Shown: piece after piece, positions 1,841 through 59,600 of the stretch
How positions within the stretch are numbered: the stretch's first letter is position 1
Layout of the letters: each line of letters opens with the position of its first letter
DNA from: Paecilomyces variotii
Taxonomy: Eukaryota
Strand: one strand, 5' to 3'
Assembly: GCA_004022145.1 (NCBI GenBank)
Contig: RCNU01000005.1
Length of the DNA stretch: 64,000 nt
Notes under the pieces: model-generated
What the model was told of the DNA's origin: nothing
Database searches by the model: none
The model's input: only the letters and a program-made list of their open reading frames with translations
Translations under genes and position numbers: made by a program

Positions 1841-4059
1841 TTGTGAACCTCGATGAGATGTTCGGAAACAATTAGCGACGAGGTGGTGCGACTGCGCCTA
1901 TGGAGCATATCTTCAACTAAATGCTGCTCGCAGCTTTCCTCTCGAGAGCACAGGCGATCGGATTGTCGCTCTCTTTCGAGGTTTTGCTGAAACAGCTCCC
2001 CGACGACAAAGGGGTCCTTTGTTCATGCACTGCAATGGACATATCTCTTTGATCTTCAGCTGGTCGAGATCCTCTTCCATCCGAGCTTGCTTTTTGAGCG
2101 TCATCTCTGCCAAGGGTGAAGTGAGCCTGCGGAGAAGTATTGTCACAACGGAATCGATGCCAAAGACAAGCGTTATCTCTGCATCTTCCTCGACGATTAG
2201 TAGCGTACCAGCGTAAAGGTCCGTCCGTACTCAATAATCATCTCATCTCATCGTCTCGCTTTTTCTTACTTACACGCGAGGTAGGTGAATGATCGTCGCA
2301 ACGAGTGCGGATCCAGTGTTTCCAGAAGAAGTAACACACCCGGCTGACCTGCTGGTTATGGTAAAGCGAGTCTCTGTTTCAGAGAGGGCATAGATAGTGG
2401 TCAGTTGACTTTGTGTTCCATCGTTCTAACCTGTGCTAGTTACTAGTAAATACTAAGAGCATGCTAGCCAGCCTGGCCTAAGGCCGATGGCGCGTGCTGG
2501 TTCTCCAGATCATCTCTCGGAGTCTCGGTAGTCGGTACTGGATGCGAAACGGCTGAATATTCCGCACTGCTGAGGTGATAACGCTGCTTCAACACGCTTT
2601 AACGTACTATGGAGGTCATCAATTAACCTCCGAGTTCCTTCCAGATCTATCACATCGTGTTGGATTCGACAAGCTCACTACTGCAGATGTTCGCTTGGCC
2701 ATAATTGAAGCCAGAGATTCCAGGGTTGTTCTACAGTATTCGGTTCTGTCGGTTCACCCCCGGGTAACGCAGATCCGGTAGTTTCCTTCTATTTCCTAAC
2801 GTGCGACTGATTCTATACATGTGGATCGTGGCCTATCTCTAATTCTCTGACCGGCATACTGCAGATCCCTCGAAGATGATAAATGATTCTACGTGTCAAG
2901 TGGTTTTTTGACTCCTTATGGAATTTGACCTGAGTTATCCACCGGCAAATAAAGATCGAAGTCCCCTAGTCGTATGACGATTTGTGCGGCAGAATGCGGA
3001 GACAGTTAGTTGCAAAGATCTTCAATTCGAGACCCTGTCGCGGAGTTGCAGATCAGCACTCCTCCGGTCCACGCTTCTTTTCCTTAGATTCTCTGCATGT
3101 CTTCGGTTATTTCGCCGGTAAGTCTGACCATGGACCGATTCATTCGCCATTTCTCTGCTCGTCGAAACCCCTTCCGCCAGGATCCCCGGCTGGGTTTGTC
3201 ACGAATGCAAGTGTGTGCAACTGCATACTGCTGTCACCGGTTCTTTCTGCCTCACTTGATTTCTCCGGGCCTTCCAGCATATTGGACCCTGATTTGCTGT
3301 TCCAAAGCAACTGCTTCGAGGGTCTCGCCGTTGATGCCACCCTGCTCCGTTGTAATCGATGGCACCCATGCAAAAAGTGGTTTCTATCTTGAACGCAATA
3401 GATTATTATCTGAAAGAAGTCACCACTTTCTACTCACTTCAACAAACCTGCATCGAGATCCCGTCACTGGATCCACGTAATAGAAGACTCAACCGAAACC
3501 TCTACCCCCTTTCGATGTCCAGGTTATAGTATCCATCCTCAAGATCGGTAAGCTGAATCCTAGGCAGACGCATAGCTCAATATCCAATCTACAAGGGGAC
3601 CAGAAATCGAAATCCAGCCCCCAAATCCCGAGTGAAATGCACTACTAGAGTACTTGGGATCTCATGCATGACTAAAGCAGTAAGGTTCTTCAAGGTCCAC
3701 AGAGTATTATTATTATTATTCCGTAGACCCTTCTGACGCCCCTGTCGGGGTTCGCAAAGTCGTCAAGAAAACCCATAATAATCAGTAGCAGATAGATAAA
3801 TAGAGTTTCTTTCCTAGTTAATTTTGTGACATCTCGAATCAAGCTTCCCCCTTCCCCCTCACATCATAGATGAGATCGACGCGTGAGCTATCTATTCTCA
3901 GTTCTGGCGCTATTGACTTTCGCATTCTCCGGATGTAGTCCCCGTTGCATGTGGCTTCTTCTCCCCGCAAGCAAGGAGGCGGGCGGAGTTTTCCCCAGGG
4001 AGGGATTCTTATTACGTATGTAGTGGCTTAATACGGGTCCGCAGAAGAAACAAAAGAAA

Positions 4060-5290
4060 AAAAATTTTTTTTTTCTCTTATTGGAATAGGTACACTAGAC
4101 TCAATTATGAGTTTTCTTCTACAGGACATTGCTGTTATTATTATTATTCGGCTAGAATGCGTACGTTATATCCTCTTTTTCGAGGAATTAAATTAATTGT
4201 TCTTGAGGACGGAGACTACTGTATTTTACGTAATATAGTTATAGAACGAGCACGACATAGAGAGAGTATATATAGATATACTACGTCTTTGTAAGTATGA
4301 AACTCAATTCGTAGATTATATGGAACATTATACTGTATAATTAGGAGAGAATAATGCTTCATTATTACTAGTCTAGTAGTAACTTGTAAGGAAACACAGA
4401 AAGCGACATACTCTCTAGCTTACCTGTTATTACTACTGTAACTAGCTAATCTATTATTCTGTGAAATTCATTCCTAAAAGATTTATATAGTGCAACTGAG
4501 TAGAGTAGAACTCTGAAAAGAAAAAAAAAGCGATTAGTTTATATCTCGTGTAAACCATGCCCTAAAACTATTACCTCTCTGTTTAGCGTGGATTCGCGCA
4601 ATTTATATATAGTGTTTAATGTATATATATTTCTCTTTTATTGAGGAGATTTACTTTATACTAGAAGAAAAAATATTTATAATAGCATAAATTGGTTCAA
4701 GAGTCCTTTCTATAGCTAATAGTTCTTTAAATTATTATCCTCTGCGTGTCATTGTGAGTATATGGTCCTTGATAACATTGGGAATCCTGACGGATATAGA
4801 TTTAATATTATCTTTTAGGTTTTATCTGAAGATAAATATCATTGCTCTCTTGCGTATTAGATATGTATAATGTACTATAGTATGGGCACATGGTTAACGA
4901 AGCGATACTCTGTCTGTAAAGTCCAATTTGAGCTTTGCTTGTTTGTTCAGTCCTGGCCTGTTCATAGAAGGGATAGTCAGAAAGCGCCACCCTAGGGTAT
5001 TAAAAGCAATACTCTAGGCACAGTAGAGGTATTTCCCGGAGGATTGGTCAATGGGAATATATTAGACAGAGAATTGTCAGGGAGGTATTTTTCAAAGTTT
5101 GTCTTGCCCTTATTCGTGGATCGTTGCGAAGTAGTATTATTATGTAGTGAGATTTAATTAGAAAACGGTAACAGTCATGCGGAAAGTCAAACCCGTGTAA
5201 TTTTGAACGTATTATTTCCTGAAACTGGATCTTTATATCAGACGTCTCTGTCTCTCGCTGCATAATCGGCCTCTATAGGACTGTATCTAT
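4060..5290. other. AT-rich, TpA-rich non-coding tract
   Basis: Visibly lower GC than flanks, frequent TATA/TAG/CTA, no credible ORF. Confidence 0.6.
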
Positions 5291-6151
5291 TCCGTTCTAA
5301 TCTAAGGCGGTAGGATCAGAAGCGTAACGGCGTTTTCTTTTTGTTTTCATTGAACCGGGTCCGAGGGGCAATGCTCCCGGTAAGGGTCGTGAAAATGCCC
5401 AGGAGATGTTGAATATGTGTAGGGTATTGTCTCTGAGCGCAACGGACTCGTATAGACAATGAATGCTGAAGGTGGAAGAAAAGATGATTTCGAAGTTGAA
5501 GTCGATCGGTAGATGAGGAACGAAGAACATTTGAGGTATGAGACGATTGTACATGATGCGAATTGCAATAGGAAACAAGAAAATACGAGGTGAGAGGAGA
5601 CGGGGGAACTTTTAAACTGCATTAAACAAAATGGGGATAATTGATGAAGAAGAAGAAAACGAGAATGTTTGTCCTGTGTTGAGAAGAAGAGAAAAAAAAA
5701 AGATATCTAACTCCGATGCCCCTGGTTCCCATGGTTTTTCTTTTGCGAGACCAACTCCATGCCTTTTTGTTGAAAATCATCCCGGATTTGATGTTGAATG
5801 AACTAATCCTCACTTCGCTCCCATGTGGTATCAAGTTGTGCTCGCAGAAAAGTAAATTTATGTTGAATCTGGTTCTCTTTTTTGTCTTCTCATGTTAAAA
5901 AGTTGAGGACATGCCATGGTTGAAATGTAGGCCGAGAGAATGAAGAAAAAAGAGTCCATGCTTTGAAAGCGTAAAAAGGAAGTAAATCGTTGAGATCTTC
6001 GTTTCGTAACGCCGTAACCTTCCGAGTTACCTCGAGTGTCATTAATGTTGAATTTTTGGTCGTGATATTAAGAGTTCGTTAGTTGAAAAACGTGTCGGCG
6101 ACCAGAGCGCCGGTTGAATGGCGCTGCTTTGAATGTAATGTAGTGCTGTAA

Positions 6152-9394: not shown

Positions 9395-12295
9395 TCAAAT
9401 GAACAAAGCTTTGCCAACCTTCCCAAATACCCACCCAAAGGGTTTCGCAACCCATACAACCCAACTTCCCAGAAAGACCATGTAGCCGGCAGCACGGCCT
9501 AATACCATAACCACGAAACCCAGGACAAAGAAGTACAGACCTGCCTGACCCATATCCCGCATCAACAGTGCGATTTCTTCATTGGTCGACTTCGGCCACG
9601 AGCCCGTACGCTTGTAGACGATGATCCCGTTCGAGACTCGTTTTGCAACATGGAAACAATGCCCTGCCATCTCGAAAATCCTCTCAGCAATGATGCTGGC
9701 ATGCTGAGATATGTGATGACGGCGGCAGAAGTCGTATAACTGCGTGACAGACAACACACAAATATCGAATAATAACGAGAAACTAAGGAAATTGATTGCG
9801 CCACTCGATGCATCAGCATCACTCTTGCCTTCATTGCGCTTCACTAGCGCAGTGTCTTGCTCACGATTATCACTCTTAGATGCAGGTACTTGCTGACCAT
9901 CGAGTTCCGCAATCTCGGCCGTTTTAGGTGTTCGCGCTCGAGTGACACTTTTCGGTCTTCCCTCTAGAACGGGCGAGGGAGGTGCGGTCAAATCTTGAAA
10001 GCGCGGAGTAGGCGCAGGCCCAGGAATATCCTCGAACATCAGTGGATAATTAATATTCTGAATGGGATTATGGTTGTCCGTAATACATCTCCTGCACAGG
10101 CAAAATTTGTGATCACCGCGGGCGCCGCCGATATCTTGTTCGGAGGTCATCATCCTGGACATACGGATGTACCCAGGCATAATGGAAAAGCTTTCGCGAC
10201 TTTGAGGGCTGATTCGTCTGTTCCTGACACCGGACATGCCTCCTGCCTGAACGTTCCCTGGTGGCAGCATGAAGAACGTTTCTGACCTTGGTAGCATTTG
10301 CATCTGCTGCTGCCATTTGGACTGGGAATTCGAAGGATGGGACCTCGTCCTCGGGACGTGTACGGTGTCGTCTGCCTTCGGGGTTTGAGTGCGTTGCATG
10401 CTTTTTCCGCCTAAATCTGGACAAGTAGTACTTGTGGGTATGGTACTGGATGTCAGAGTGCGTGTGATAGTGGGTGTGATAATGAACACATCGTCGTCGT
10501 TCTGATTCTCTTTGCCCAACGTGTCCGGCTTCTCTGGTTTCTCCTTTGGGAGTGGTGGCAGACTCTTGTTTTTCAGACTGTTCGGCATGGGTTTGTTGAG
10601 CCCTGATTGCCTGGGAGGGCTGGACAGAGGCTGCTTCGAGCATTGGGTTGGCTTCATATTCCGAGAACGCAGTGGCTTCTCGTCGTGTAGGATAGCCTTT
10701 TCGTCTGCCGACCGCCTCTGTTGCTTCATGCCCGATTCCCTTTTCCCGCCAGATCTCCTTTTTGTCTCCGGAGATGGGGGCATGGTTGGATACGGCGAAT
10801 CGTTCGAAGTAGGGAACATCAATATTTCGTCTGGGTTCTTTGTCTTGTTCATCTCCTGACAACCTAAAAAAGTCTCCCCGCCGGCTCTGAGATGTCTCTC
10901 TCGCTGGTCCATTCGAGGAGACTCATCGTCAATAGGACTTACACGATCTCTGCCGACATCATCCGCATCATAGTACTGGCGGGGCCCCAGCGGAGGGGAC
11001 ACGGGGGACCGAGTATAAGTCTCTGCAGATACAGTTCGTACTGGTTTCCGTTGAACCGTTACGCTCGGTTGCTTTTCTAGTCTCTGAGCGGGAGCACCCC
11101 TTCGTTCAGGAGTCACTGCACGCGGACTTGGGAGAGTTTCTGGATCTAACATTTTTCCGCCTTCCAGACGCACTCTTTCGATGCTTTTCTGGTATTCCTC
11201 AATCTGCTTCGTAGTCATAGTTGGCGGATTTGGTTCTCTTGCTGAAGGCATGTTGACGATGAATCTGTCTTCCCAGTTGTTCGAGGCGGTTCTCATCGGT
11301 TCTATAGGCGACACCAAGTTATGAGAGGACGAGGCGCTATCCTTATTCACGACAACACTCTGACCAGCAGGAGGTGTGTCCCCTGGTGTAGACTGGTCGA
11401 TATCCAGACTTATCCATTCGTCTCCTTTCATCCTCCATTTTTTCTTCTTGCTATGAGGCTTGCTCTTCTCGTCCTGGGAGCTGTCTGTGGCCACACTGGG
11501 GCTAATTATTCCAGTTCTAGGATTAGCCCCTCTGCCCAGAAGCTTGTCTTCGTTCGTACTCGTCGCATGGGACTTATTTCTGTGTCTCTCCGTTTCATGC
11601 CGCATAAGCCTCGTAGATGAGCTCAAGTTGTGGAGTGTGCCATGCCTATCATGATTCATTTGACCAGATATCCCGTCAGTACACACCTCTGCCTGCCGCG
11701 CTCTCGGATACGTATCACGGGCATCCGCGATGGCTCTAAGCCTTGCCTCTGTCACACCCGTACCAGAGCTAGCACGAGAATCTCTTTGTCTTTGCCTCTG
11801 TATGATGCTGTCTGGTCGTGGTAATCTTCCATTTTCGAATCGCTCGACAGTAGTGGACATGGGATGTATGTGTTCGCTAAATCGTAGTATGGTCTCTGGG
11901 GCGCTGACCGAACGGCTGGATGCTGCAGGCATATGATCTTCGAAAGTAACCGACTTTTTGTGTTGTCTACCGTTCGTCCTCGGTACCTTGACGTTGCTCC
12001 GCCGCTTCGTCTGGTTATCGTGGGCATGGTAAGAAGACAAAGGTCTATCCGCTGGCAGTTCGACTCGGCCCTCCATCTCCAACCCCCGCCGACCACGGGA
12101 ATTATTGACAGTTAGGACTCTGTCAGGGGACGGTTGGATCGTATTGGCCCATCCCGATGGTGTGTACGTCGGTTTCAATCTTCTTTGTCCGTACTCGTTG
12201 CTTGTATCGGTCCTCTGAAGATAGATCACTTGGAAAGATGATAGAGAGCTGCTGTCAAAAGGTGGTGGGCAAGCAACAGGCAAAAAAGGAGCCAT
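9395..12295 (-). CDS. Hypothetical protein, largely low-complexity (P/S/R-rich) with C-terminal hydrophobic helices
   Basis: Uninterrupted ORF of about 966 codons from the first ATG (MAPFL); hydrophobic C-terminus (GLYFFVLGFVVMVLG, MVFLGSWVVWV). Function not recognisable; start uncertain. Confidence 0.75.
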   Translation of the reverse strand: MAPFLPVACPPPFDSSSLSSFQVIYLQRTDTSNEYGQRRLKPTYTPSGWANTIQPSPDRVLTVNNSRGRRGLEMEGRVELPADRPLSSYHAHDNQTKRRSNVKVPRTNGRQHKKSVTFEDHMPAASSRSVSAPETILRFSEHIHPMSTTVERFENGRLPRPDSIIQRQRQRDSRASSGTGVTEARLRAIADARDTYPRARQAEVCTDGISGQMNHDRHGTLHNLSSSTRLMRHETERHRNKSHATSTNEDKLLGRGANPRTGIISPSVATDSSQDEKSKPHSKKKKWRMKGDEWISLDIDQSTPGDTPPAGQSVVVNKDSASSSHNLVSPIEPMRTASNNWEDRFIVNMPSAREPNPPTMTTKQIEEYQKSIERVRLEGGKMLDPETLPSPRAVTPERRGAPAQRLEKQPSVTVQRKPVRTVSAETYTRSPVSPPLGPRQYYDADDVGRDRVSPIDDESPRMDQRERHLRAGGETFLGCQEMNKTKNPDEILMFPTSNDSPYPTMPPSPETKRRSGGKRESGMKQQRRSADEKAILHDEKPLRSRNMKPTQCSKQPLSSPPRQSGLNKPMPNSLKNKSLPPLPKEKPEKPDTLGKENQNDDDVFIITPTITRTLTSSTIPTSTTCPDLGGKSMQRTQTPKADDTVHVPRTRSHPSNSQSKWQQQMQMLPRSETFFMLPPGNVQAGGMSGVRNRRISPQSRESFSIMPGYIRMSRMMTSEQDIGGARGDHKFCLCRRCITDNHNPIQNINYPLMFEDIPGPAPTPRFQDLTAPPSPVLEGRPKSVTRARTPKTAEIAELDGQQVPASKSDNREQDTALVKRNEGKSDADASSGAINFLSFSLLFDICVLSVTQLYDFCRRHHISQHASIIAERIFEMAGHCFHVAKRVSNGIIVYKRTGSWPKSTNEEIALLMRDMGQAGLYFFVLGFVVMVLGRAAGYMVFLGSWVVWVAKPFGWVFGKVGKALFI

Positions 12296-12970
12296 ATCGA
12301 TATCCTGTTTGTTCTTTCCGCGAATCAAGGGATTAAGAATATGGAATGGTATGTTATGTGGGGGTATTATCGTTCAATGGAATGTGCCCGCGTGCACGCA
12401 GCGAATGGAATGCTTGCATATTCAGTGGCTGGGATCCGAGACCATCAAGATGCACTGTAATCGATATCATCATAGTGGTTATTGTTTCTTGCATTGATCG
12501 GATTCGGCAGCGACGGCTGGTCACTTGTAGTGAGATCACTAGAAAGGCAACCGTGACCTGCGAGGCGGATGGCACAAGTATAGAGACCCTACATTCTCCC
12601 GGGAATGGGAAGACAGACTTGCTGAGTCTTAGGCTTTATTGGACCAGGCAAGAGCAGTTGAGATCATTGTGTGAGAGTATGGCACGAGGTAGTTCCGGAG
12701 TGGTCAATTGAGATAATACAAAGTCTCGAAGAGAAAGCTTCCTATCCTAGTGATCTCTTTGTCCATCGCTGATCTTCAGCGACAGGGAGATCGAGAACAA
12801 ATTGACTATGACCGGAAGTGCATATGAATGTCGTTGTTTTATACAATTGCACTGTATTAAATTGATCTAACCGCAATCACCACAACCGACAATGTTCGTG
12901 GCAAGGTCGAACTTTGTCTGACTGCCCGGTAGATTATAGTTGATATGATATAATGCAGGCGACGGATGCA

Positions 12971-34883: not shown

Positions 34884-35649
34884 TCATAGTTTCGGTTTAT
34901 CGCTGACCTCTTTAGCATGTGCCGCAGCCTCCTCCGCATTGCGCGCAGCGCTGCCTTCCAGGCCATAAAGAACCTTTCCGGATCCAGGAATCACCATCTC
35001 AAATGTTTCCGAAATACGGGTATATTGGAAATAGCCACAGCGAGCAATAGGCTGGGCTTTGGAAAGGTCAACAATGCCATCAGTCAACACGTCTTCCGAG
35101 ATATGGACACCAACAACAAGGCCGATGATGATGTCGACAGTACCCATCGGAGGGTTTCCAGGGAGCCTCAGGGTGCTATGATAGCGACACTCGAATCGGA
35201 TAGGCGAATCGCGCACCATAGAGCAACGTACCAGGTGCGCAGGCGCCTTGGTCAGACCTGCGCGCTCGAACTCGTCTGTTCCATAGGGAACTTGCTCCGC
35301 TGAGATGTTGACTGCTTCTCGCAGAGGGTATGTTGCCATGTTCCACACAAATTCCCCTGACGCCTCAGTATTGATCGTTGTGTCCTTGCGTACGCCCAGC
35401 TCGGTCTGGTTTGCTGAAAACATGACGTATGGAGGGTCGAATGTCAGGTTGTTGAATTGAGAGAACGGCGCGAGGTTGTCAACGCCATCTGGTGATCGTG
35501 TTGAGATCCAGCCAATCGGCCGGGGCACTACGCAGGCCTACATCCCAATATTCAGTATCAGTAAGAGGGACAGTCTATGGTAATATGATAACAACCTTAA
35601 AGGGATCCCGCGGCAGCCGATGTGGTGTTTTACCCGGTTGGTAGAACAT
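34884..35649 (-). CDS. Flavin reductase-like FMN-binding split-barrel protein with C-terminal PKL, 2 exons
   Basis: MFYQPGKTPHRLPRDPFK|ACVVPRPIGWIST, NLAPFSQFN, KDT..N.E..GEFVWN, SPIRFEC, PIARCG; ends SDKPKL*. Intron about 35595-35537 with GTTGTT donor. Confidence 0.9.
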
Positions 35650-36752
35650 GATGGCGTGCTAAATCATGTATTGAAGAAGTCCGAGGCTTTGCAGCTTAAT
35701 TTTGCCACTGAACTACAGACTTCCAACTGACGATAGAGGCAGATTAGCTAGATGTCATAACGCCTGGACGGCTCGCTCGGGGCAATTCCGCTGGCTTCTT
35801 AGCATCGATTAGCGGACAGAATAGCGCCGGCGTGCAGCTTCCCCATGTTTTCGGCCAAACCAGAGTTAGCCGGGTGGTTATCTGGTGGTTTGATAGTTAC
35901 TAAACGTGGGGTATGATAAAAGTTTATGGCCTCCTAAAGGTGAACACTCTTATTACATCGAAAGCGAGTCTAATTTATTACTCGTAGGTAGTGTTTAGTT
36001 CGTCCCGCATCTATCACTTTGTATCGTCGGTTACCCTACCGTCTGCTACAATAACTTAAGAGTCTAAATTGAGAAGCTCTAAATACCTAAGTACCGGCAG
36101 AATGGGGACGATAGAAATCACCGTCCACATAAGCTCATAGACCGAACAGGATGACATGGCTACGCAGAGGATCAAATGGGCTTGCAAGCCAAGAAAAATG
36201 GAAGATCTCGATCGGATGCGGAATTAGAAATCAATATTACAATCATTATTACCTTATTACCTTAATAACTAGTAAGTTCCAAACTGGTTACTGATCAAAA
36301 ACTGCGGCTGTGGAACCGAGGAAGAGCTTCGGTTGATCACTAACCAGGGCTTGCGTGTAACCGAGCATAATCAAGTACACCAAAATCGAGATATTTCTGG
36401 GCTAACTTGTCCTTTTATTTAGGAGGCAGGAATATCTCATGACACCAATCCATCTATCTATCCAAAACAAGTCGGAATTGGCTTGTCGTTACTGATCTTC
36501 TCGGTGCCATTTCTCCCCGAGACGCTAAAATAAACGTAGATAGACTAAGTATTCCAAACTGGAGCCTGCCGCGTGCACAGGCCAGCTTATCCGCATTCTG
36601 GTTACAATATCCATAAGATTGAGCCTCGGTTTCTTTCCTGCTCCACCCACCTGCTTAGACACTGGTGGTCATATAAGAAGTGTTCTTTCCCGAACACTTT
36701 TATTCATACCATAGATCTCAATTTGATGGGTTTCCCACAGAAGTGAAATATC
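35650..36752. promoter_or_regulatory. Divergent promoter (flavin reductase/SDR) with three CCTCGG/CCGAGG sites
   Basis: CCGAGG at 35681 and 36316, CCTCGG at 36624; this hexamer is the established FarA/FarB core. Confidence 0.55.
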
Positions 36753-37541
36753 ATGTCTTACAACACACAAAAGAAACCAGTTGTGGCCGTTGTAGGCGCC
36801 GGGCCTGGAATCGGAGAGGCCGTTGCCCGACGATTCGTGGCCGAAGGCTTCGTCGTCGCTCTCCTGGCCCGTACCGAAGACAAACTCCGGACGATGGTCG
36901 AGGGTATTGATGCCGACTATGGAAAAGGGACGGCGAGATACTATATAACTGACTTGCGAATTGAGGAGTCAGTTATTTCCAGCTTCAAGTCCATCCGTGC
37001 CGACCTGGGTGCCGTGACTGTCTTAGTGTACAATGCCGGTGCACGTCGCGTCAATGGCAGATCAATACTGGATACTACGACCGAGGAATTCGAAAACTTT
37101 ACGAAGATTAATCTGTTCGGTGCTTTCTGGTCCACCAAGTGCGTGTTACCCGACATGCTAGCCGCAGGTCAGGGAACGATTCTGTATACAGGCGCGACAG
37201 GTTCGCTGCGTGGTTCACCCGGACTAAGCAGTTTCTCTCCTGGAAAGTTCGGGTTGCGGTCTCTAGCGCAGATCGTGGCCCGCGAATACCAATCCCAGGG
37301 AATTCACGCGGCACATATCATCATTGACGGTCCAGTGGATGGAAAGTTGATTGGCGGCGTGCGGCGACGGCAATGGCAGCGAGAGGGAGAGACAGCTAAG
37401 TTGGAGGATGTTGAATCCTATCTCGCGCAACCAAAAGATCTGGCTCACATCTACTGGTTTCTGCATACTCAACCGCGAAGTGCCTGGACGCAGGAATTGG
37501 ACGTACGGGCACAGAAGGAGAGTATATACTCGAGGTTGTAA
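36753..37541 (+). CDS. Short-chain dehydrogenase/reductase, intronless, PTS1 (SRL)
   Basis: GAGPGIG cofactor motif, VYNAG, TGATGSLRG, FSPGKFGLRSLAQ, AHIIIDG, QPRSAWTQELDVR; ends ESIYSRL*. Confidence 0.93.
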   Translation: MSYNTQKKPVVAVVGAGPGIGEAVARRFVAEGFVVALLARTEDKLRTMVEGIDADYGKGTARYYITDLRIEESVISSFKSIRADLGAVTVLVYNAGARRVNGRSILDTTTEEFENFTKINLFGAFWSTKCVLPDMLAAGQGTILYTGATGSLRGSPGLSSFSPGKFGLRSLAQIVAREYQSQGIHAAHIIIDGPVDGKLIGGVRRRQWQREGETAKLEDVESYLAQPKDLAHIYWFLHTQPRSAWTQELDVRAQKESIYSRL

Positions 37542-38320
37542 AATGTCTGAGGAATAGGTCAGCCTTTGACCTCCGATTTTTTTTTTTTTTTTGAAAGCTG
37601 TGCGAATAGTCGGAACCATTGGAAGACCACGACTTTGAAGATGTAAATGGAGCCGTACAATGTCTGTTCTGTTTCATGTTTCCAATTATTGTCGTATCTA
37701 GCATTATACAGCATGCTTTATTCCTAGTCAATTAGTATTTAGAGGCGTCCTTTCCGACAAACTTTAGCGAATAATGTCCCAGCGAGCACTTGAACGTTCT
37801 AAATGCTTCAGCTCGGCCCTTCAACCAGGCCGGATATCTTGTATGAAGTCCATTCTGCCAGGTTCGGGAGATTACAGTGAATATACTTGGGGTGCAAGCT
37901 CTTTGATTCATGTCTCTAAAGCCAGCATGGTATCAAGTATGTGATGAGGAATAGTAAAACTGTAAAAGTCTACAGCCCTCGTTCTATTATATATAGCGAG
38001 AAACCACGTTTTCTCTAAAATCTGTGAAACCACCGTTACCAGATGGGTTTTTATGTACGATAAGTTATTCGCGCGGATGCTCTTGGCCCCCAAAGTCCAT
38101 TATTGTATGGTATCGGCTCCGATCCGAAGCGCTCCGAGAACACACCGTGTGACTGACCAAGTAAGCAAGCAGTACAATTCCTCAAAACCCCCAGGTTCCT
38201 CTCAAGGTACATACATACATACAACCAACCATCTCATATATGAAAGAAGGACCTTGATAGTTATCCTTGATAATCTAATCTGCAGATCCAGTAATCAATA
38301 ACTACAACATACATAATAAT

Positions 38321-39274
38321 ATGCCCTCCTCCACACTCTCCACCCTCCGTCTTCCCCGCCTCCCCGGATTTCCCAACCACTATCGCTATGGATCATCTTA
38401 CTCCACAGCACTAACCATCGCATCCGCGTCGCTGCTCACTGCAGTTGGTATCCTCTGCGCACCGGCTGCGTATCGAGACTACAAGAAATACATGTCCTAT
38501 GGACCCGGCGGTCCGCCATACAATGTCTTCGGATGGCTGGCCATCTCCCTCCTGGCACCGCTGCAGCGCGAGATGCTGGATACAGCGGTATATGACCAGG
38601 ACGTGGAAGAGTTAGGAGAAGAGAGGACATGGTTGAAAGACGAAGATTTACCACAGAGAAAGGGACCGAGACCGGAAGTTGGGACGCATGCTGCGCCGCA
38701 GAGGCAGCTTACGCAGACCCCGGAAACGGAGATTAAAGAGGTAGGTTCTAGTTCACTTATTAAGTAATTTCTTTCTATATTTTATCAATCGATATCGTTG
38801 CGCGCAAGAGGACTGACTGTCTGATGAATGCGGATATATTAGAAACTGCTCAAAACCTTCCTCGAGATTCAGTTTAACAATCAAAATATACTGAACATTG
38901 CACCGTCCAATCTGGAAAAACATACATCTGCACTCTTCATCTCCGACCTCGCGCCTCGTCCCAATCCTCTCGTTACTTCGTCCACACGGGGTGAAATCGC
39001 TCATGTCCACGGCACTGCCGAACATTCGGTCCATGTGATCCTTTCGCCTGTGGACAGCAAGAAGGTCATCGAGGCCGGATGGGGCCAGCGTCACTCGCTG
39101 TCGGGCTCTACGGTTTTTCGCAAATTATTCGGGAAGAAAAGGGCAATGTTTATCCCGAATGAGTTTCTCTTGATCTATGCACCGAGGGATGAGGAGGAGA
39201 TTAAAGTTGTGATAAATATCGTAAAGGCAGCAGTGGCGTTTGGAGCGGGAGTGTCGACTGACGAGGTAATCTGA
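38321..39274 (+). CDS. Luciferase-like (DUF5519-type) domain protein with N-terminal membrane anchor, 2 exons
   Basis: DYKKYMSYGPGGPPYNVFGW, LPQRKGPRP, PQRQLTQ, GEIAHVH..EHSVHVILSPVD...GWGQRH.LSG, LIYAPRDEEE; intron 38741-38842. Confidence 0.8.
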
Positions 39275-39646
39275 GCAGTTTGATGTGTCGGGGAGTTCTG
39301 ATTCAGGTGATGAGGTGCAGAACTGGGACGGTGTTAGTTGTCTGGGAGATATATGGATGTACTATATGGGAGGATGTAATGGGATACCCAGTGATAACGG
39401 AGGAGTTTGGCGTCGGGCAAACATATCTGATCATTTAACTTGTCCTTGTGGATGTTTAATAGTCGTGGATATAATCTCATCTCACTTGAAGCTCAATATC
39501 ATCCTCCTGTCTTTACAAGGGTTCATATCATGGATTTACAACATGTCCAGTCTGGTCTAATCGATTCATTCGCCGTTAATACATGCTAGAAAAAGAAAAT
39601 ACAGATCCGAAGTTTAGACCACGGAGTATGGAATAGACACAACAGC

Positions 39647-41245
39647 TTAATGCTCGGACACGAAAATTCCAGCCATTCCCATTCCCTGTTTTAGATAACG
39701 TCAGTGAATGCTTGGTCAAGGATGTAGCGTTGGATCGCGGAGAACTTACCGTTCCAACACACATAGATGTCACAGCAACACGCTTGTTCTGCCTTCGAAG
39801 CTCGGACAGAGCAGTGACAACCTGTCGTGCTCCTGTGCAGCCGAGGGGGTGGCCCAGGGCACTATAATGGTTCTTAGTAAATCGTCCAGCTTATTTTAAG
39901 ATCAGATGAACTCACATTGCACCACCACGGGGGTTAACCTTGCTCTCATCCAGACCGAGCTTGTCGACGCAGTACACGCCCTAAAGAACGGTTAGTTGCT
40001 GAACGACGGGAGTTGAAATATATGGCTAGACAGGCAAAAACACACCATGGAAGCGAAAGCCTCGTTGATCTCATAGATATCCACCTCGTCCTGACTCAGG
40101 TTGTACTTGCTCAGGATCTTCGGGATAGCAATGGAAGGTCCGATACCCATGATACGGGGCTCAAGACCAATGACCGTAGCACCCACAAACTTGCCAACGA
40201 TCGGCTGGCCCAGCTGCTGCGCCCGCGATCGCTTCATCAGGAGCACTGCGGCAGCGCCATCGGTGATCTGACTGGCGTTGCCACCAGTAGTGTTGCTGGG
40301 CGCCCACTGCGGGAAAGCAGCACGGATCTTGCTCAGGCCCTCGGGGGTAGTACCGTATCGGACACCATCATCACGGTTGACAACAACCTCCTTGACCTCG
40401 CCGGTCTTGGGGTCCTTGACCTTGGTTCGTACGGGCACGATTTCCTCGTCAAACCAACCAGCCTTCTGGGCGCGCTCGGCCTTCTGGAAGCTCTTGGCAG
40501 CGAAAGCATCCATCTGCTCACGGCTGATACTGAACTGACCGGCGACGTTCTCTGACGTCTGGCCCATAGGCTGCGTGTTCTGGCCAGCAAGGCGATGTGA
40601 CAGGATGGCGTCAGACATTTTCGGGGCGCCATTGTCGGGACACGTGCTCATGCTCTCAGCTCCAACAGCGATACCGACATCGATAGACCCAGCAATGATC
40701 TGGTTGGCGACATTTTGGATCGCGAGCAGACCGGACGAGCAGAATCGGTTGGATACCGAAGCGGCCGTGCTCTCGGGGAAACCTGCAGCCAGAACAGATG
40801 AGCGAGCGATGTAGGCCGCACTGGGCGACAGAACGTTTCCAACACAGACATCCTCCACCTGGTTGGGGTCAATCTTGGACTTCTCGCGAACAGTCTAGAT
40901 ACGGTCAGACGTGTGTTGCGTAGGAAACTTTTACTGAACAATAAACTCGGGTTTTGCGCACCGTCAGTAGCGAAACAAGCAGATCATCCAACGGGGTATC
41001 CTTCAAGCCCCCCTTGCGAGCCTTGGTAAGCGGTGTTCTCACGGCCAGCGTAATCACCTACTTTTCTGTTAGATCAACCCATCCAATCCGTATCTTTTTT
41101 TCAGAAGCGAGTATATTGCTAAGACGTGGTCGGGACTTACAATATCGTCGGGGTTCTGCGCAAGTATCTTCTGTCTGGCCGCAGATTCGCTAGTGCCAGA
41201 GAGCTGGTTAGCTATGGAGGACAATCTCTGCTGTGCGGACGACAT
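39647..41245 (-). CDS. Peroxisomal 3-ketoacyl-CoA thiolase with PTS2, about 6 exons
   Basis: MSSAQQRLSSIANQL (RLx5QL PTS2); NRFCSSGL active-site Cys, GNASQITDGAAA, EINEAFAS, GHPLGCTG, SMCVGT|GTGMAGIF. Confidence 0.95.
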
Positions 41246-42366
41246 TTTGAAATCTGTATGTAGCTGCCGTGATCTCAAATCCGTGTCTGCCTGCTCGACG
41301 GATAGGACTAGTAAACACAACTGCAGAAGACCGAAACTGCGGGGGCGGGGAGATCCGCTGCAAGATATATATCCTCGAGGTCGATGGCAAAAAAGAAAGA
41401 AACGGATAGATTTTAGGATGGACGGTACTTTAACTAGGGAATCCCCACAGAGCACATGTACAGATCAAAGACTTCTGTCCACCCGACTAGGAACAACCAA
41501 GCAGCCAGTCGGCTCAATAAGACCGAGATAAAACCTCAAGATGCCTAGGTAACGGGCGCTGCGGTATTAACCTGCCGAAAAGCAATGCCGTCCTAGCGAC
41601 GTTACAATACTGTCACCGCTGGTACCTCGGCTGCTCGGAGTGCGCGATCGACTGCGATTTTGAACGCTTTGGGCGATTGAGTTCGGATATCAGAGCGTTA
41701 GCTCAAGGGGCCTTTCTCCACAGCCCTCTATGTTGTGATTAAGTATGCGGCCGATAATTATCGACGATATCAAGGAAACGGGGTAGCCATAAGGACGAAG
41801 GGTAAGAGTAGAAGCCGTCCTTATGTATCTGTATCGCTCAATTTTGAACGACTTCGCGGCGTTTTGTGGAGAACAGCAAGAGGTTGATATACTCTGTGAA
41901 TAGTTATCATCTTGACACCTTCAGGATCACCAAAATGCCCCATGTGGGGCTGTATGGCGTATTACCCCAGAGCAGCCAAAACACCATAAAGAGTTAAGAG
42001 CATGGAGGAGATTCTTATAACCATTCGAAACATCGTAGTACATCAAAGTGCTGTACCGAGATCCGTCTATCACGATACATTTCAAAGTCCCTTCTTTCAA
42101 GTTTCAAGCCACGCAGCGGCAGATGAACACTCCAGCTCCCGACTGCCACTTTGTCCGCGTTTCTCAGACTGTATAACTGAATCTTCTCCCAGACTAAGCT
42201 CCGCAAGAGTGTGGAGGTCGAGTGAGCTTGGAATCTCGGATCAGTGTGTTTCGTGAACGGGAATAAGTCTATCCCGGGCTATTTAATTGATCTCTCATAT
42301 ATCCTGTTGAAGAGAAATATCAAAAATCACAGAAGAGGAGCACAATAGAGACTGAATCTGGACAAA
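41246..42366. promoter_or_regulatory. Divergent promoter (thiolase/acyl-CoA synthetase) with a CCTCGG site and paired CreA-type sites
   Basis: CCTCGG at 41625; tandem GCGGGG (SYGGRG) at 41339 and 41345. Confidence 0.55.
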
Positions 42367-44531
42367 ATGCTTCCCATCGTCGTCGGCGCCACGCCGTCGT
42401 CCGTCGCGATGACATCGGCCTTTGTCGCTGCTGCGGGTGCCTACCTCAACGCCAAGTTGGGTATCTCTACAGATCTGACAAACCTCTACCATGACCGAGA
42501 TTTTGGCAAACGGCTGGCCCAATGTGTCAAAGATCTGGGAGAGTCACAGACCGTATACGGGTTGCTACAGCGAGGTGTCGAGATTCACGGCAAAGGCGCG
42601 TCCGAGGCGCTGTGGTTCGAAGGCAAGACCTGGACATATGCTCAGTTGAAAGACCGTAAGGACACCTCAAATGCCCAGTAGTCCAAAAGATTGATTATTA
42701 TGGCCACTATAGCGACTGATTCATTTACTGACGGGTTCCAGTGGTCGACAAATTTGCTGAGGTGCTCCATGCCCGGGGTGTTCGACCGGGTGATTTCGTC
42801 GCGGTCTTCACAACGAACTCCCCGGAAATGGTTATCTGTATACAAGCACTCTCGAAACTGGGTGCAGTGGCTGCTATGATCAATACCAATCTGCGAGGTA
42901 AGCGAACCGTTGCTGCAGGATCGTGTAAATATTATACTGACCTCTTAATGACTAGACGAGACCTTCCTCCATTGCTTGAACGTCTCCAATGCCAAGTTGA
43001 TCATTGCATCGCCAGATCTGGCCCAGTTTGTTATCGGGGATCAACCGCGCATATCATTGAACATAGGATCGTTTGACGGCATCATTCCTGACACGGCAGA
43101 GCTCATCAGTCTGCAGGACCTTCAGACACAGCCGAGCACGGGTTTAAAGGCTGCGAAACGCTCTATCGTTGATCTGGCTGTTCTTATCTATACATCGGGA
43201 ACGACTGGCATGCCCAAGGCCTGCGCTGTCCCGAACATGCTGATGCTTGTCACGGCGAACCCATTAACACGAGACCTGAGCAATCCGTCCAAGTACTATC
43301 CGATGAGGATATACTCGCCATTGCCCCTTTTTCACGGCACTGCTATGTTCGCTGGAATGTGTTATTCGCTGGGTAACCTGGGGACTTTCTGCTTGCGACG
43401 CAAGTTCTCTTCTTCACAATTCTGGAAGGATGTCCATGACTCGCGCGCGACTCGAATCATGTACATTGGTGAACTGTGCCGGTACTTGCTAGCCACTCCG
43501 CCATCACCATACGACCGCAACCATTCTTGCAGGGTGGCGGCTGGCAATGGTCTACGCGGGGAGATTTGGGAGCGCTTCAAGGAGCGTTTCGGAGTGCCTG
43601 AGATCCGTGAGTTCTACCGCTCGACAGAAGGTGTCGCCAAATACGACAACATGGGGGAAGGCGCCTGGGGTGTTGGCAAGATCGGATTCTCAGGACCCAT
43701 CAGGCGTCTGGTGGAGGACGATGTCATCATCGTCAAGTATGATCCAGAGACCGAGATGCCGTATCGGGATCCGAAAACGGGATTCTGTGTCAAGGCCAAG
43801 TTGAACGAGGAAGGTGAAGCCATTGGCCGGGTCAAGAATCGCGCCCTTTTAACAGAATACTTGGGCAACAAGGAGGCGACGGAGAAGAAGTTGATTCGAA
43901 ATGTCTTCCGGAAAGGAGACCTCTTCCAGCGAAGCGGTGACCTGCTAGTCCATGAATCCTCGGGCTGGATTCGTTTCCAGGACCGCGTGGGGGATACTTT
44001 CCGCTGGAAAGGAGAGAATGTTAGCGCGGGAGAGGTCAGAGATCACATCTGTCGGCTTCCAGGAGTACATGACGCCGTCGTATATGGCGTAAGGCTTCAG
44101 AGGTAAGTATTCACTGCAGCATGATACAGGGCCAGATAGACTAACTGGAGCAGCTATGATGGCCAAGCTGGTGCTGCAGCTATCACACTGGAGAAATGGA
44201 CACCCGAGAGCGAGAGGGAATTTATATCCACTCTCTATAAGGCACTCAGGGCTAAGGGCGTGCCCACCTACGCTATACCTCGTTTTGTCCGGTTTATCGA
44301 AAAGTATGTCACCTTCCCGAAAAGAATCTGCTGTCCAGCGATACTGACAAGGCCTCAAGAGTTTCGACTGGTGTCACCTTCAAGCAAGCAAAAGGCGACC
44401 TGGCCAAGAAAGGATGGGATCCACGAAAAGACGCGGGCGGTGACTCCCTGTACTGGCTGAACGGAAGCCAATATCAACCTCTCGACGAGAGCAGCTGGAC
44501 TGGTATTGAGGCTGGTGCTGCAAAGCTGTAA
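42367..44531 (+). CDS. FATP-family very-long-chain acyl-CoA synthetase (Fat1/CefD1-like) with PTS1 (AKL), 5 exons
   Basis: AMP-binding YTSGTTGMPK, YIGELCRYL, FATP signature DRVGDTFRWKGENVS, YDGQAGAA, PTYAIPRFVR; last exon ends GIEAGAAKL* (TAA 44529-44531). Confidence 0.94.
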
Positions 44532-56618: not shown

Positions 56619-59600
56619 ATGGCGGATAAAGAGGAAGAGACAAAGGGCTCTTTGGAGAGCCATCCTTCCCCCGAGGAGTCGAAGCCAAATCCAGACTCGT
56701 CTGAATCCCACGATGCCGTCCCAAAGAACGTACCTGCTCCCCGCGGTCCTAAAAAGCGCACCAAGACAGGCTGTCTGAGTACGTCCCCCACCACGACTAA
56801 TTACCGTGACAGGAAACCAGTTGACTCCATGAATAGCGTGTCGCAAGCGGCGCATCAAGTGTGGTGAAGAGAAGCCAATATGCAACAATTGCGTCAAATC
56901 GAAGAGGGAATGCGAAGGCTACGCACAGCGCGTCATCTTCAAGCATCCCTTGGGTCCTTTCGGAGCATTTCAGACAGGACCTCTGGGAAGCCACCTGCAT
57001 CAGCCTCCGATGGGCTTGCCTCTGTACAGTAATTATAATGCGCAGTATGCTCAATCTCTGCCTGGAGGGTCGCAGCACCCTTTGCTAGCTCCGCGCCCGG
57101 TATATCTCCCACCGACCGGGGCTGCTGGACTGATCAATGCTGGAACAATGCCTCAGTTACCTGACGGACAGGCAGCGAATGCGGTGCCATTGTATTATCC
57201 AACAGCAGTTCCCACAGGACAGACTCAGGGATTCGCACAGCCGCAAAACTTCGTTGCGCCGCAGCCAATACCTACCGCCACTGAACTGACTGGCACGGTA
57301 GGGGAAAATGGTAGATATCAAGATGCATTCGTCGCGCCGTCTTCATATCAACCATTTCTCAATCAACAGCAGCCTTGTCAGATCCCTGTATCTGGGACAC
57401 CTCAACTAAATGCTCTTAACCAAGGTGATATGTCGCAGCACTTCGGACAGAGCTATCTACTAGGCGCAACGAATTGGGGTCCTATACCCGACTCTCGCGT
57501 GTCACAGATCCAACCAGCAGTCAGTTCCGGTGAGCAGATAGTTATCGACCATTCTCCAGAAATACCCCTGCACCCCAAACAACCCTCGCCGTTGCAGATA
57601 CTATCCCCATCTTCTGGTTATGAAAGCGACGACTATTATGATGTCGATTCCGATGAAGAAATGTCTGAGCAGACGCAAATCGAGAGTTTCAATCAATTGA
57701 ATCTGATAATGGCGTCCGCTCGTCATGATGAACGTCTAAGATCCTTCACAACACATCTGAACGAGCCAAATGTGTTAGCTTCCTATCGTCCATCGATGGG
57801 ATCAACACCTCTCAATAACCCAAAGACCGCACGGATCTTCATGCATTTCATTCATTCAACAGGGCCGTCCATCTCCATCTGGGAAAGACACCCGACGAAT
57901 GCCTCAATCAGGCTGGGGGCGGTGATTCCGCCCGCTCACCAGGGCTTGTGGACGTATACCTTACCACTCAAAGCTTTGGAGCATCCTGCATTACTGCAGG
58001 CTATTCTTGCCATCAGTAGCTTGCATATTGCGAAGCTCCAGGATGCACCCCCTACAGTCTCAATGAAACATTATCACTACGCACTAAAGAAAGTGGGAAC
58101 TGCGGTCGGTCTTCCTCTACGACGGAAACAGATTGCTACATTGGCAGCTACACTTCTGCTTGGCTTCTACGAAGTCACAGCAGCTGAACACCACAAGTGG
58201 AACAGCCATGTCGCAGGTTCCTCACAGCTCATCAGGGAGATCGATTTTGCAGGGTTGACTCGGGACCTGCGGGCTCACCGGCGCAGGGTGCGAGCACAGC
58301 AGGAGCGGATGGCTCAGATGGAAAGCTGGCCTTGGTATGACCAATTTAGCGGAGGGGCGACGGAGGATGATCCGTTTTGCGAAAAAGAAAGCGAGGTGGA
58401 TGAGAACCTGGTCGGCTCCTTAATGGGTCGAGTAATTAACTATGATCAATTTGGACGAATCGAAGGTGAAAGCGAGGCAGCGTCCCCGAAGAAGAAGCAT
58501 TTCACGAAAAAGGACATCGAGAATTACAGGATCCAAAGCGACCTCTACTGGTGGTACACCAAGCAAGACCTTTTCCACAGCTTGATTAGTGGAAACCGTC
58601 TCTTGTGAGTTTTGCCCAAATCGTAGGTTCGAGCTCCGCTAACTGACGCCGCAGCACCTCTTACGACCAGTGGGGACAGTGCCCACCCCGTGCCGGTATT
58701 GGAAGGTTAGACGCTGTATACGGGTCTATGGATCATTTGATTCTTCTCCTTGGTCGCTTGGCCGACTTTGCTTACAGAGATCGTAAAAGGAAGATCAGGT
58801 CACTGGCAACTACTGGCGGCGAGTGGAGGCCAAACTCGGAATTTTTCAAGTTCATGGCACGCTTCGCACCTAGAGGTCGCCAGCCTCATGGAGGAGCCAA
58901 TGTGATGGCGCCTGGTGATGCTGCCAGTAGCTTTCCTCCCCAGGGACCCCCAGTTGTCATGCCTCCTCAGCCATCTGACCGGCAGAATCGGCTTCGAGAA
59001 GACCCGCCAATGTATGGCATGGTGCCGCAACGCGGTCCAGTCCGCCTTCCCTCAGCATTCATAGCTACGGGGCGAGGCTCGGGCGTCATATCTGATGATA
59101 CAGAGGATACCAACCTGGCGGAAACGCCCTACAAGGATGCGGAGGCTGAGTGGGAAGATATGGTAGCTGCTTTCGATCTGTTTGCTAGGTCCCTCGGCCC
59201 TGAGTATATGCCTTTGTCACCGGACATTGCTGCTCCTATTTCGACCCCGTTTGGGCCAGCATTGCAATACCGCACCCACACAATAGCCGTACTCTGGGCT
59301 TATTATTATCTTGGGCGAATTCTATTGAATCGACTGCATTCATCCATGCCACCGGCCACGATGGTTGCTGCTGGTGTGGCAGCATCGACTACAGTCGAGT
59401 CTGCCCAGACGATCGGAAAGATAATGGCTGGTATCTACCATCCGCAACAATACAATTTTGAAGCAGGCAGCCTCAACCCGACAATAGGTGGTGCCCTCAC
59501 AGAAGTCACAGTACCAATGTTCTTTGCGGGTGTGCAGTATCAGGATGCTGCTCAACGAGGCTGGACCGTCTCGAAGCTCACTGAGATCTCTCGTTTGACA

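Follow-up and report, generated by a model that had tools for sequence, protein, structure and literature searches.

What does a compact group of five genes, most of which seem to encode peroxisomal enzymes, do in a filamentous fungus: does it specify one pathway, or has a known gene pair come to lie beside genes with other tasks? The group in question occupies positions 34884-44531 of a 64,000-nucleotide stretch of contig RCNU01000005.1 (assembly GCA_004022145.1) of Paecilomyces variotii, which we refer to as the window. Sequence reading, gene models and Pfam agree that all five genes are real: they encode a flavin reductase-like protein, a short-chain dehydrogenase (SDR), a luciferase-like protein, a 3-ketoacyl-CoA (coenzyme A) thiolase and an acyl-CoA synthetase of the fatty acid transport protein (FATP) type. 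An earlier note, made from the letters alone, had described two divergent pairs around the luciferase-like gene, end signals of the peroxisomal targeting types 1 and 2 (PTS1 and PTS2; -PKL on the flavin reductase, -SRL on the SDR, -AKL on the synthetase and RLSSIANQL in the thiolase) and a membrane anchor at the N-terminus of the fifth protein, and each of these descriptions, orientation included, is borne out by the sequence and the models. It had also proposed that the five genes form one co-regulated peroxisomal pathway, in which an unusual acid is taken through activation by the synthetase, dehydrogenation by the SDR and cleavage by the thiolase, and the flavin reductase and the luciferase-like protein supply an oxygenation. 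We think it likely that the region is a lineage-specific juxtaposition and not one conserved five-gene pathway; its core, the thiolase and the synthetase, is orthologous to the katA and hcsA genes of Aspergillus niger, an already published peroxisomal module.

The identity of this pair emerges from several lines. In Pfam the thiolase matched Thiolase_N (PF00108, 5.5e-57) and Thiolase_C (PF02803), and the solved structures closest to it are the peroxisomal 3-ketoacyl-CoA thiolases 2iik (human, 1.1e-73), 2c7y, 2wu9 and 1afw, a set in which human, Arabidopsis (KAT2) and yeast (Pot1) enzymes are represented. Its translation contains the stretches NRFCSSGL and GHPLGCTGAR, which we take to be the thiolase catalytic signatures. 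Once spliced, the model also carries RLSSIANQL in a form that fits the PTS2 rule R-x5-[HQ]-L of PMC8140964. The synthetase showed the AMP-binding domain (PF00501) on three exons, and its model is identical to the P. variotii protein P0300 at 628 of 637 residues. Its top named homologues, annotated as 'bifunctional fatty acid transporter/acyl-CoA synthetase (FAT1)', come from Aspergillus and Penicillium at 66-76% identity, and the terminal tripeptide is AKL, AKI or ARL in 84 of 86 full-length homologues, so that conservation of the targeting signal in orthologues, which the earlier note had put forward as a check, is found for this protein. P0300 in turn shares 70% identity (612 aa) with A. niger An02g03330, and An02g03320, whose tag adjoins it, is described as an acetyl-CoA C-acyltransferase (PMC4981222). 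The published survey reports the same two genes in this organism: Table S4 of PMC8140964 gives, for P. variotii CBS 101075, an HcsA homologue at 69.7% and a KatA homologue at 75.3%, scored as neighbours, and for Byssochlamys spectabilis No. 5 values of 68.7% and 77%, again scored as neighbours. The A. wentii protein ASPWEDRAFT_44259, a 75% match of the window synthetase, is listed in that table as the A. wentii HcsA homologue.

According to that work, hcsA and katA are adjacent in 37 of 50 Eurotiomycetes, P. variotii included (Lubbers et al., 2021, PMC8140964). In A. niger the two genes are NRRL3_05989 (hcsA) and NRRL3_05990 (katA), the 3-ketoacyl-CoA thiolase KatA carrying the PTS2 RLTSIANQL; for both genes strong induction by caffeic, ferulic and p-coumaric acid is reported, mutants lacking them showed that each takes part in the degradation of hydroxycinnamic acids, and the hydratase and dehydrogenase steps are assigned to an unlinked multifunctional enzyme, FoxA (PMC8140964). 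The window pair resembles the A. niger pair in that a synthetase of the FATP family with a terminal AKL is divergent from a PTS2 thiolase whose signal is one residue apart (RLSSIANQL against RLTSIANQL), in an identity of about 70% between the synthetases, in a CCTCGG box in the shared promoter and in the unlinked position of the hydratase/dehydrogenase function. We see no essential difference in the pair itself, whereas the induction and deletion phenotypes come from A. niger only. The synthetase is likewise the orthologue of A. nidulans FatB (AN5877), a FATP-type enzyme with a C-terminal PTS1, which is reported to be peroxisomal and to show no fatty-acid phenotype on deletion (cited in PMC8140964); it differs from HcsA in that, according to the citing text, its substrate was left undefined in Reiser et al. 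(2010). In the main text of PMC8140964 the words 'flavin' and 'short-chain dehydrogenase' each occur zero times, and its passages on the pair name no SDR, flavin reductase or PF17648 neighbour.

The promoter between the two genes fits the same picture. Measured from the start codons, its box is about 380 nt upstream of the thiolase gene and about 740 nt upstream of the synthetase gene, a placement that resembles the putative FarA sites (CCTCGG) reported for A. niger at -400 for katA and -871 for hcsA (Arentshorst et al., 2022, PMC10512302). We infer the substrates, localization and regulation in P. variotii from this correspondence. HcsA would convert ferulic, caffeic and p-coumaric acid into CoA esters inside the peroxisome, an unlinked FoxA would hydrate and oxidize the side chain, and KatA, imported through its PTS2, would cleave off acetyl-CoA and leave hydroxybenzoyl-CoA, with katA and hcsA presumably served by their common promoter and its FarA-type box. 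A conversion of p-coumaric acid by P. variotii has been reported to yield p-hydroxybenzoic acid (PMC4569624), which is the product predicted by the hcsA/katA route. In agreement with the earlier note, neither a hydratase nor an acyl-CoA oxidase was found by Pfam among the window's other 82 open reading frames (ORFs) of at least 110 aa. Its notion that an aromatic acid is activated and cleaved in peroxisomes with the help of unlinked genes describes the thiolase/ligase pair well, given the published hcsA/katA module and the unlinked foxA, and is not supported for a conserved five-gene unit.

The SDR is a conserved enzyme in its own right. Its exact sequence is present in a 12-member cluster made up of P. 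variotii proteins and one protein of Paecilomyces lecythidis, and proteins of 262 aa in Leotiomycetes, Dothideomycetes, Sordariomycetes and Eurotiomycetes share 76-84% identity with it; it appears to be an ordinary single-copy orthologue found across the Pezizomycotina. The only species in which we saw a second copy is Paecilomyces lecythidis, where P0064 (Plec18167_003764, 81% identity) forms a one-member cluster with which no P. variotii protein groups, the orthologue of the window SDR being Plec18167_001144. Strain No. 5 has a 563-aa model (GAD93876.1) that fuses the SDR with the luciferase-like protein (36753-39274) by splicing out the -SRL end and the stop; this fusion is probably an annotation artefact, the other 11 members of the cluster all being 262 aa long. 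Because a PTS1-like tripeptide ([ST][KR][LMI]) ends 120 of 121 homologues (SKL 90, SKM 9, SRL 7, TKL 5, SKI 4, SRI 3, TRL 2), with a strict PTS1 in 106, the SDR is very probably an enzyme of the peroxisomal matrix. Its best solved relative, 3h7a, is an uncharacterized bacterial SDR.

A second conserved property of the SDR lies upstream of it. For this and for its neighbourhood we used 57 fungal loci with an SDR orthologue, taken from metagenome contigs, which reach at least 2 kb upstream of the gene in 23 cases and at least 2, 5 and 7.5 kb downstream in 27, 12 and 10 cases, respectively. Of 37 loci, 35 had the box in either orientation (CCTCGG/CCGAGG) in the 600 nt that precede the SDR. The 51 boxes counted compare with 13.1 expected (2.30 per kb, the remaining sequence of these loci having 0.59 per kb), and the corresponding Poisson value of about 2e-15 overstates the independence of the loci, which are related and in some cases near-duplicates. 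In the window the two boxes on the SDR side, at -124 and -432 from the ATG (36624-36629 and 36316-36321), lie within the range of -65 to -579 spanned by those of the orthologues. The whole divergent promoter of the SDR and the flavin reductase has three, compared with about 0.5 expected per 1.1 kb; across the window the sites are not enriched (34 against 31 expected), so that this is notable only as a local density. Since the box precedes the gene in nearly all of the loci at about four times the density in the rest of their sequence, we suggest that the SDR belongs to a fatty-acid/peroxisome regulon across the Pezizomycotina, and it is probably Far-regulated.

The neighbourhood of the SDR in other fungi bears on whether it is tied to the hydroxycinnamate route. 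Within their reach, none of the 57 metagenomic loci had a flavin reductase, a thiolase or a member of PF17648 (the family of the luciferase-like protein, see below) near the SDR at an E-value of 1e-5 or better, and none had a FATP-type synthetase there. Acyl-CoA synthetase matches of 25% identity in loci L026 and L027 proved to be a ligase like 4-coumarate-CoA ligase (4CL), not a FATP-type enzyme. In both Eurotiales compared the SDR is also separate from the pair: in A. brasiliensis the SDR locus is 001463 and the hcsA orthologue 006092, which are unlinked, and in A. candidus the two genes are on different contigs. The earlier note had expected linkage of the SDR to the thiolase/ligase pair in other genomes and had cast it as the pathway dehydrogenase; the first was not seen in these loci, and the dehydrogenase step is assigned to FoxA in the published route. 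A single five-gene pathway therefore seems unlikely to us, even though the genes are tightly packed, the group supplies three of the only four ORFs with a PTS1-like end ([SAC][KRH][LM] or PKL) among the window's 909 stop-to-stop ORFs of at least 40 aa, CCTCGG occurs in both divergent promoters, and other fungi have the SDR paired with an acyl-CoA ligase.

That pairing deserves attention of its own. Among the 40 loci with at least 1 kb downstream of the SDR, 19 have a 4CL-like gene within 3 kb downstream (L005, L017, L018, L021, L022, L028, L034, L035, L040, L044, L047, L052 and others), mostly convergent with the SDR and 100-450 nt away, and its product ends in ARL, SKL or AKL; the best solved relatives of this ligase are plant 4CL2 enzymes (E 3e-65). 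The SDR and the PTS1-bearing 4CL-like ligase may constitute an uncharacterized two-gene peroxisomal module, and a topic-limited search of the literature returned no description of such a pair. In one locus, a true bacterial-type luciferase-like monooxygenase (PF00296, E 6e-48; L011:12643-14172) lies 1.9 kb downstream of the SDR with a second SDR fragment between them. No remnant of the 4CL-like ligase was detected in the window by tblastn, whose only match was to the AMP-binding motif that the ligase has in common with the FATP gene. One could read this as an exchange, in which the usual 4CL-like partner of the SDR has been swapped for the FATP-type ligase, so that SDR, KatA and HcsA make up a three-part module in Paecilomyces, for example by reducing or oxidizing the side-chain carbonyl of an aromatic acyl-CoA, with the flavin reductase and PF17648 genes as bystanders. 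The recurrent ligase partner, the conserved PTS1 and Far-type boxes of the SDR and its distance of at most 5 kb from hcsA all lend something to this possibility, which we nevertheless hold to be improbable: the SDR has no known substrate and its best solved relative offers no characterized function, the 4CL-like ligase may simply sit elsewhere in the P. variotii genome, and two genes separate the SDR from hcsA. Under the juxtaposition that we favor, the SDR most likely has a peroxisomal substrate of the acyl-CoA or carbonyl kind and a task separate from the hydroxycinnamate route.

The flavin reductase is a genuine PF01613 protein. Its N-terminus (MFYQPGK..DPFK) agrees with those of its homologues, which backs the two-exon model, and its best solved relatives are component B of the NTA (nitrilotriacetate) monooxygenase, 3bpk (3.8e-26), and the 2-nitrobenzoate nitroreductase 4z85. 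The closest homologues are at most 64% identical and lie on short contigs that offer no gene context. Among 150 representatives a strict PTS1 was found in none, many of these being fragments in which some true ends are unseen, and the -PKL end is confined to the protein's own P. variotii cluster. Conservation of targeting signals, then, holds for the SDR and the synthetase and not for the flavin reductase, whose -PKL points only weakly to peroxisomes and tells against a five-gene pathway. The gene shares its reductase family (PF01613) with the bacterial two-component flavin monooxygenases, in which a PF01613 reductase works with a PF00296 oxygenase; it differs from them in its would-be partner, which here is a PF17648 protein. 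The oxygenation step proposed in the earlier note arose from a mix-up of PF17648 with PF00296, and the partnership of flavin reductase and luciferase-like protein has no basis in family membership because the latter belongs to PF17648 and not to PF00296. Nor did Pfam find an oxygenase of the PF00296/luciferase-like monooxygenase (LLM) type or of the HpaB type among the 82 other ORFs of at least 110 aa in the window.

The PF17648 assignment of the luciferase-like protein is firm: it scored 74.9 bits against a cut-off of 23.7, this was the sole Pfam family matched (PF00296 was not), and its neighbours in the sequence atlas were PF17648 clusters throughout. Over exon 2 it shows 100% identity to P0013, a P. 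variotii protein of 283 aa. Its residues 29-47 form a hydrophobic stretch (Kyte-Doolittle 1.88), it lacks a PTS1, and its AlphaFold model, a confident one (pLDDT 87), shows a helix at residues 25-59. With a membrane anchor and no targeting signal of its own, it would therefore not obviously be served by a reductase of the peroxisomal matrix, and PF17648 is not a family of flavin-dependent oxygenases, two further points at odds with a five-gene pathway. A PDB sequence search gave no solved relative, and Foldseek against the PDB returned nothing at E 0.001 or better. VIA-align matched the model to the DUF419 protein 2a1v (Z 7.6, root-mean-square deviation 3.2 over 116 residues), YjbR (Z 5.6) and frataxin-like folds (near Z 5); these values are in the common range of the tool, and we drew no function from them.

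The founder of the family and its only characterized member, nnLuz of Neonothopanus nambi, is a 267-aa protein with an N-terminal transmembrane helix that is found in the microsomal fraction and adds O2 to 3-hydroxyhispidin, a pyrone derived from caffeic acid, no flavin being named in the passages that describe it (Kotlobay et al., 2018, PMC6294908). The P. variotii protein resembles it in Pfam family, in size (283 against 267 aa) and in its N-terminal helix, and the caffeic-acid origin of the nnLuz substrate has a parallel in that the PF17648 gene of the window adjoins genes for hydroxycinnamate catabolism. On the other hand, the ascomycete homologues come from non-luminous fungi. A hispidin synthase, H3H, polyketide synthase or hydroxylase gene was not found in the window by Pfam. 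The protein is a member of the family and not a demonstrated luciferase, and a topic-limited search of the literature gave no function for ascomycete PF17648 proteins.

The nearest homologues of the P. variotii PF17648 protein beyond Paecilomyces are only about 50% identical. In six other Eurotiales the gene shares a contig with the hcsA orthologue, at distances that we derived from accession numbers and locus tags: four genes away in Aspergillus coremiiformis, seven in Penicillium fimorum, Penicillium concentricum and Penicillium robsamsonii, and 11 in Penicillium desertorum and Penicillium mononematosum. The two are on different contigs in Penicillium flavigenum and A. cavernicola, and direct adjacency to the katA/hcsA pair was seen in Paecilomyces only. 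This retention near hcsA in six other Eurotiales counts in favor of a five-gene pathway. It also leaves room for a bolder proposal, to which we give little credence, namely that the katA-hcsA pair of Paecilomyces has grown into a larger peroxisome-associated aromatic-acid island by recruiting the Far-box, PTS1-bearing SDR and the PF17648 membrane protein, and that ascomycete PF17648 proteins, by analogy with nnLuz and by their place a few genes from hcsA in Eurotiales, would oxygenate some metabolite derived from a hydroxycinnamate and need no cofactor to do so. If the region is a juxtaposition, as we favor, the placement of the flavin reductase and PF17648 genes is little evidence of a shared function.

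Several observations weigh against this juxtaposition. The 57 metagenomic loci have little bearing on Eurotiomycetes, because a large share of them is probably from classes without katA/hcsA, and the direct check of linkage between SDR and hcsA covers two Eurotiales only. The SDR stands beside acyl-CoA ligases in two arrangements, with the 4CL-like enzyme elsewhere and close to HcsA here, which makes a role in the metabolism of CoA esters more probable. The nearness of PF17648 genes to hcsA in the six other species predates Paecilomyces and could be functional or could be ordinary conserved synteny. The three boxes between the flavin reductase and the SDR mean that all genes except the PF17648 gene could share Far regulation. 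Finally, the equation of An02g03330 with NRRL3_05989 was drawn from the like identity values and the adjacency, and we found no explicit cross-reference between the two names.

The features of the region are listed in Table 1. The gene models, domains, targeting motifs and their conservation, the orthology of the pair and the synteny are direct observations: every modelled intron is bounded by GT..AG, the spliced frame of the flavin reductase is open, and the thiolase model has one terminal stop. The locus tags of P. variotii proteins that match the SDR, the PF17648 protein and the synthetase are consecutive (DTO207G8_315/_318, DTO169E5_7379/_7380 and DTO271D3_2722/_2723).

Table 1. Genes and divergent promoter regions at 34884-44531 of the window.
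Feature	Position	Strand	Details
Flavin reductase-like gene, PF01613	34884..35649	-	Exons 35649-35596 and 35537-34884; 235 aa; ends -PKL; E 8.6e-18
Promoter region flavin reductase/SDR, divergent	35650..36752	.	Intergenic length 1103 nt; CCTCGG at 35681, 36316 and 36624
SDR	36753..37541	+	One exon; 262 aa; ends -SRL; PF00106 E 4.7e-35, PF13561 also matched
PF17648 'Luciferase domain' protein	38321..39274	+	Exons 38321-38740 and 38843-39274; 283 aa; E 5.8e-21
3-Ketoacyl-CoA thiolase, katA orthologue	39647..41245	-	Six exons; 421 aa; PTS2 RLSSIANQL at residues 7-15
Promoter region katA/hcsA (thiolase/synthetase), divergent	41246..42366	.	Intergenic length, and distance between start codons, 1121 nt; single CCTCGG at 41625-41630
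FATP-type acyl-CoA synthetase, hcsA/fatB orthologue	42367..44531	+	Five exons; 637 aa; ends -AKL
Synthetase exons	42367-42655, 42742-42897, 42956-44102, 44154-44303, 44360-44531	+	Spliced model

Around these genes, Pfam identified housekeeping functions, among them MTHFR, KRR1, Atg22, a GH92 glycosidase, a gamma-tubulin complex protein and a proteasome subunit. The fourth ORF of the window with a PTS1-like end (3356-3526, + strand, 57 aa) ends in a strict -SRL, matched no family and is of uncertain status as a gene. To the right of the synthetase, beyond about 12 kb with housekeeping genes, lies a gene for a Zn2Cys6 transcription factor (Zn_clus and Fungal_trans_2; 56833-58605, + strand), and a 992-aa open frame at 9398-12373 (- strand) had no Pfam match. 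The block 4001-6000 is low in G+C (0.363 against about 0.48-0.53 elsewhere), and the ORFs in it had no family match; a two-part genome has been mentioned for P. variotii (PMC6300479).

With a published pathway as the core of the locus, the main value of this analysis lies in a correct annotation, that of the hcsA/katA pair for hydroxycinnamate beta-oxidation in P. variotii, a fungus that is in use for the conversion of ferulic and p-coumaric acid. Beyond this, the recurrence of PF17648 genes near hcsA in Eurotiales hints at the ancestral function of the family.

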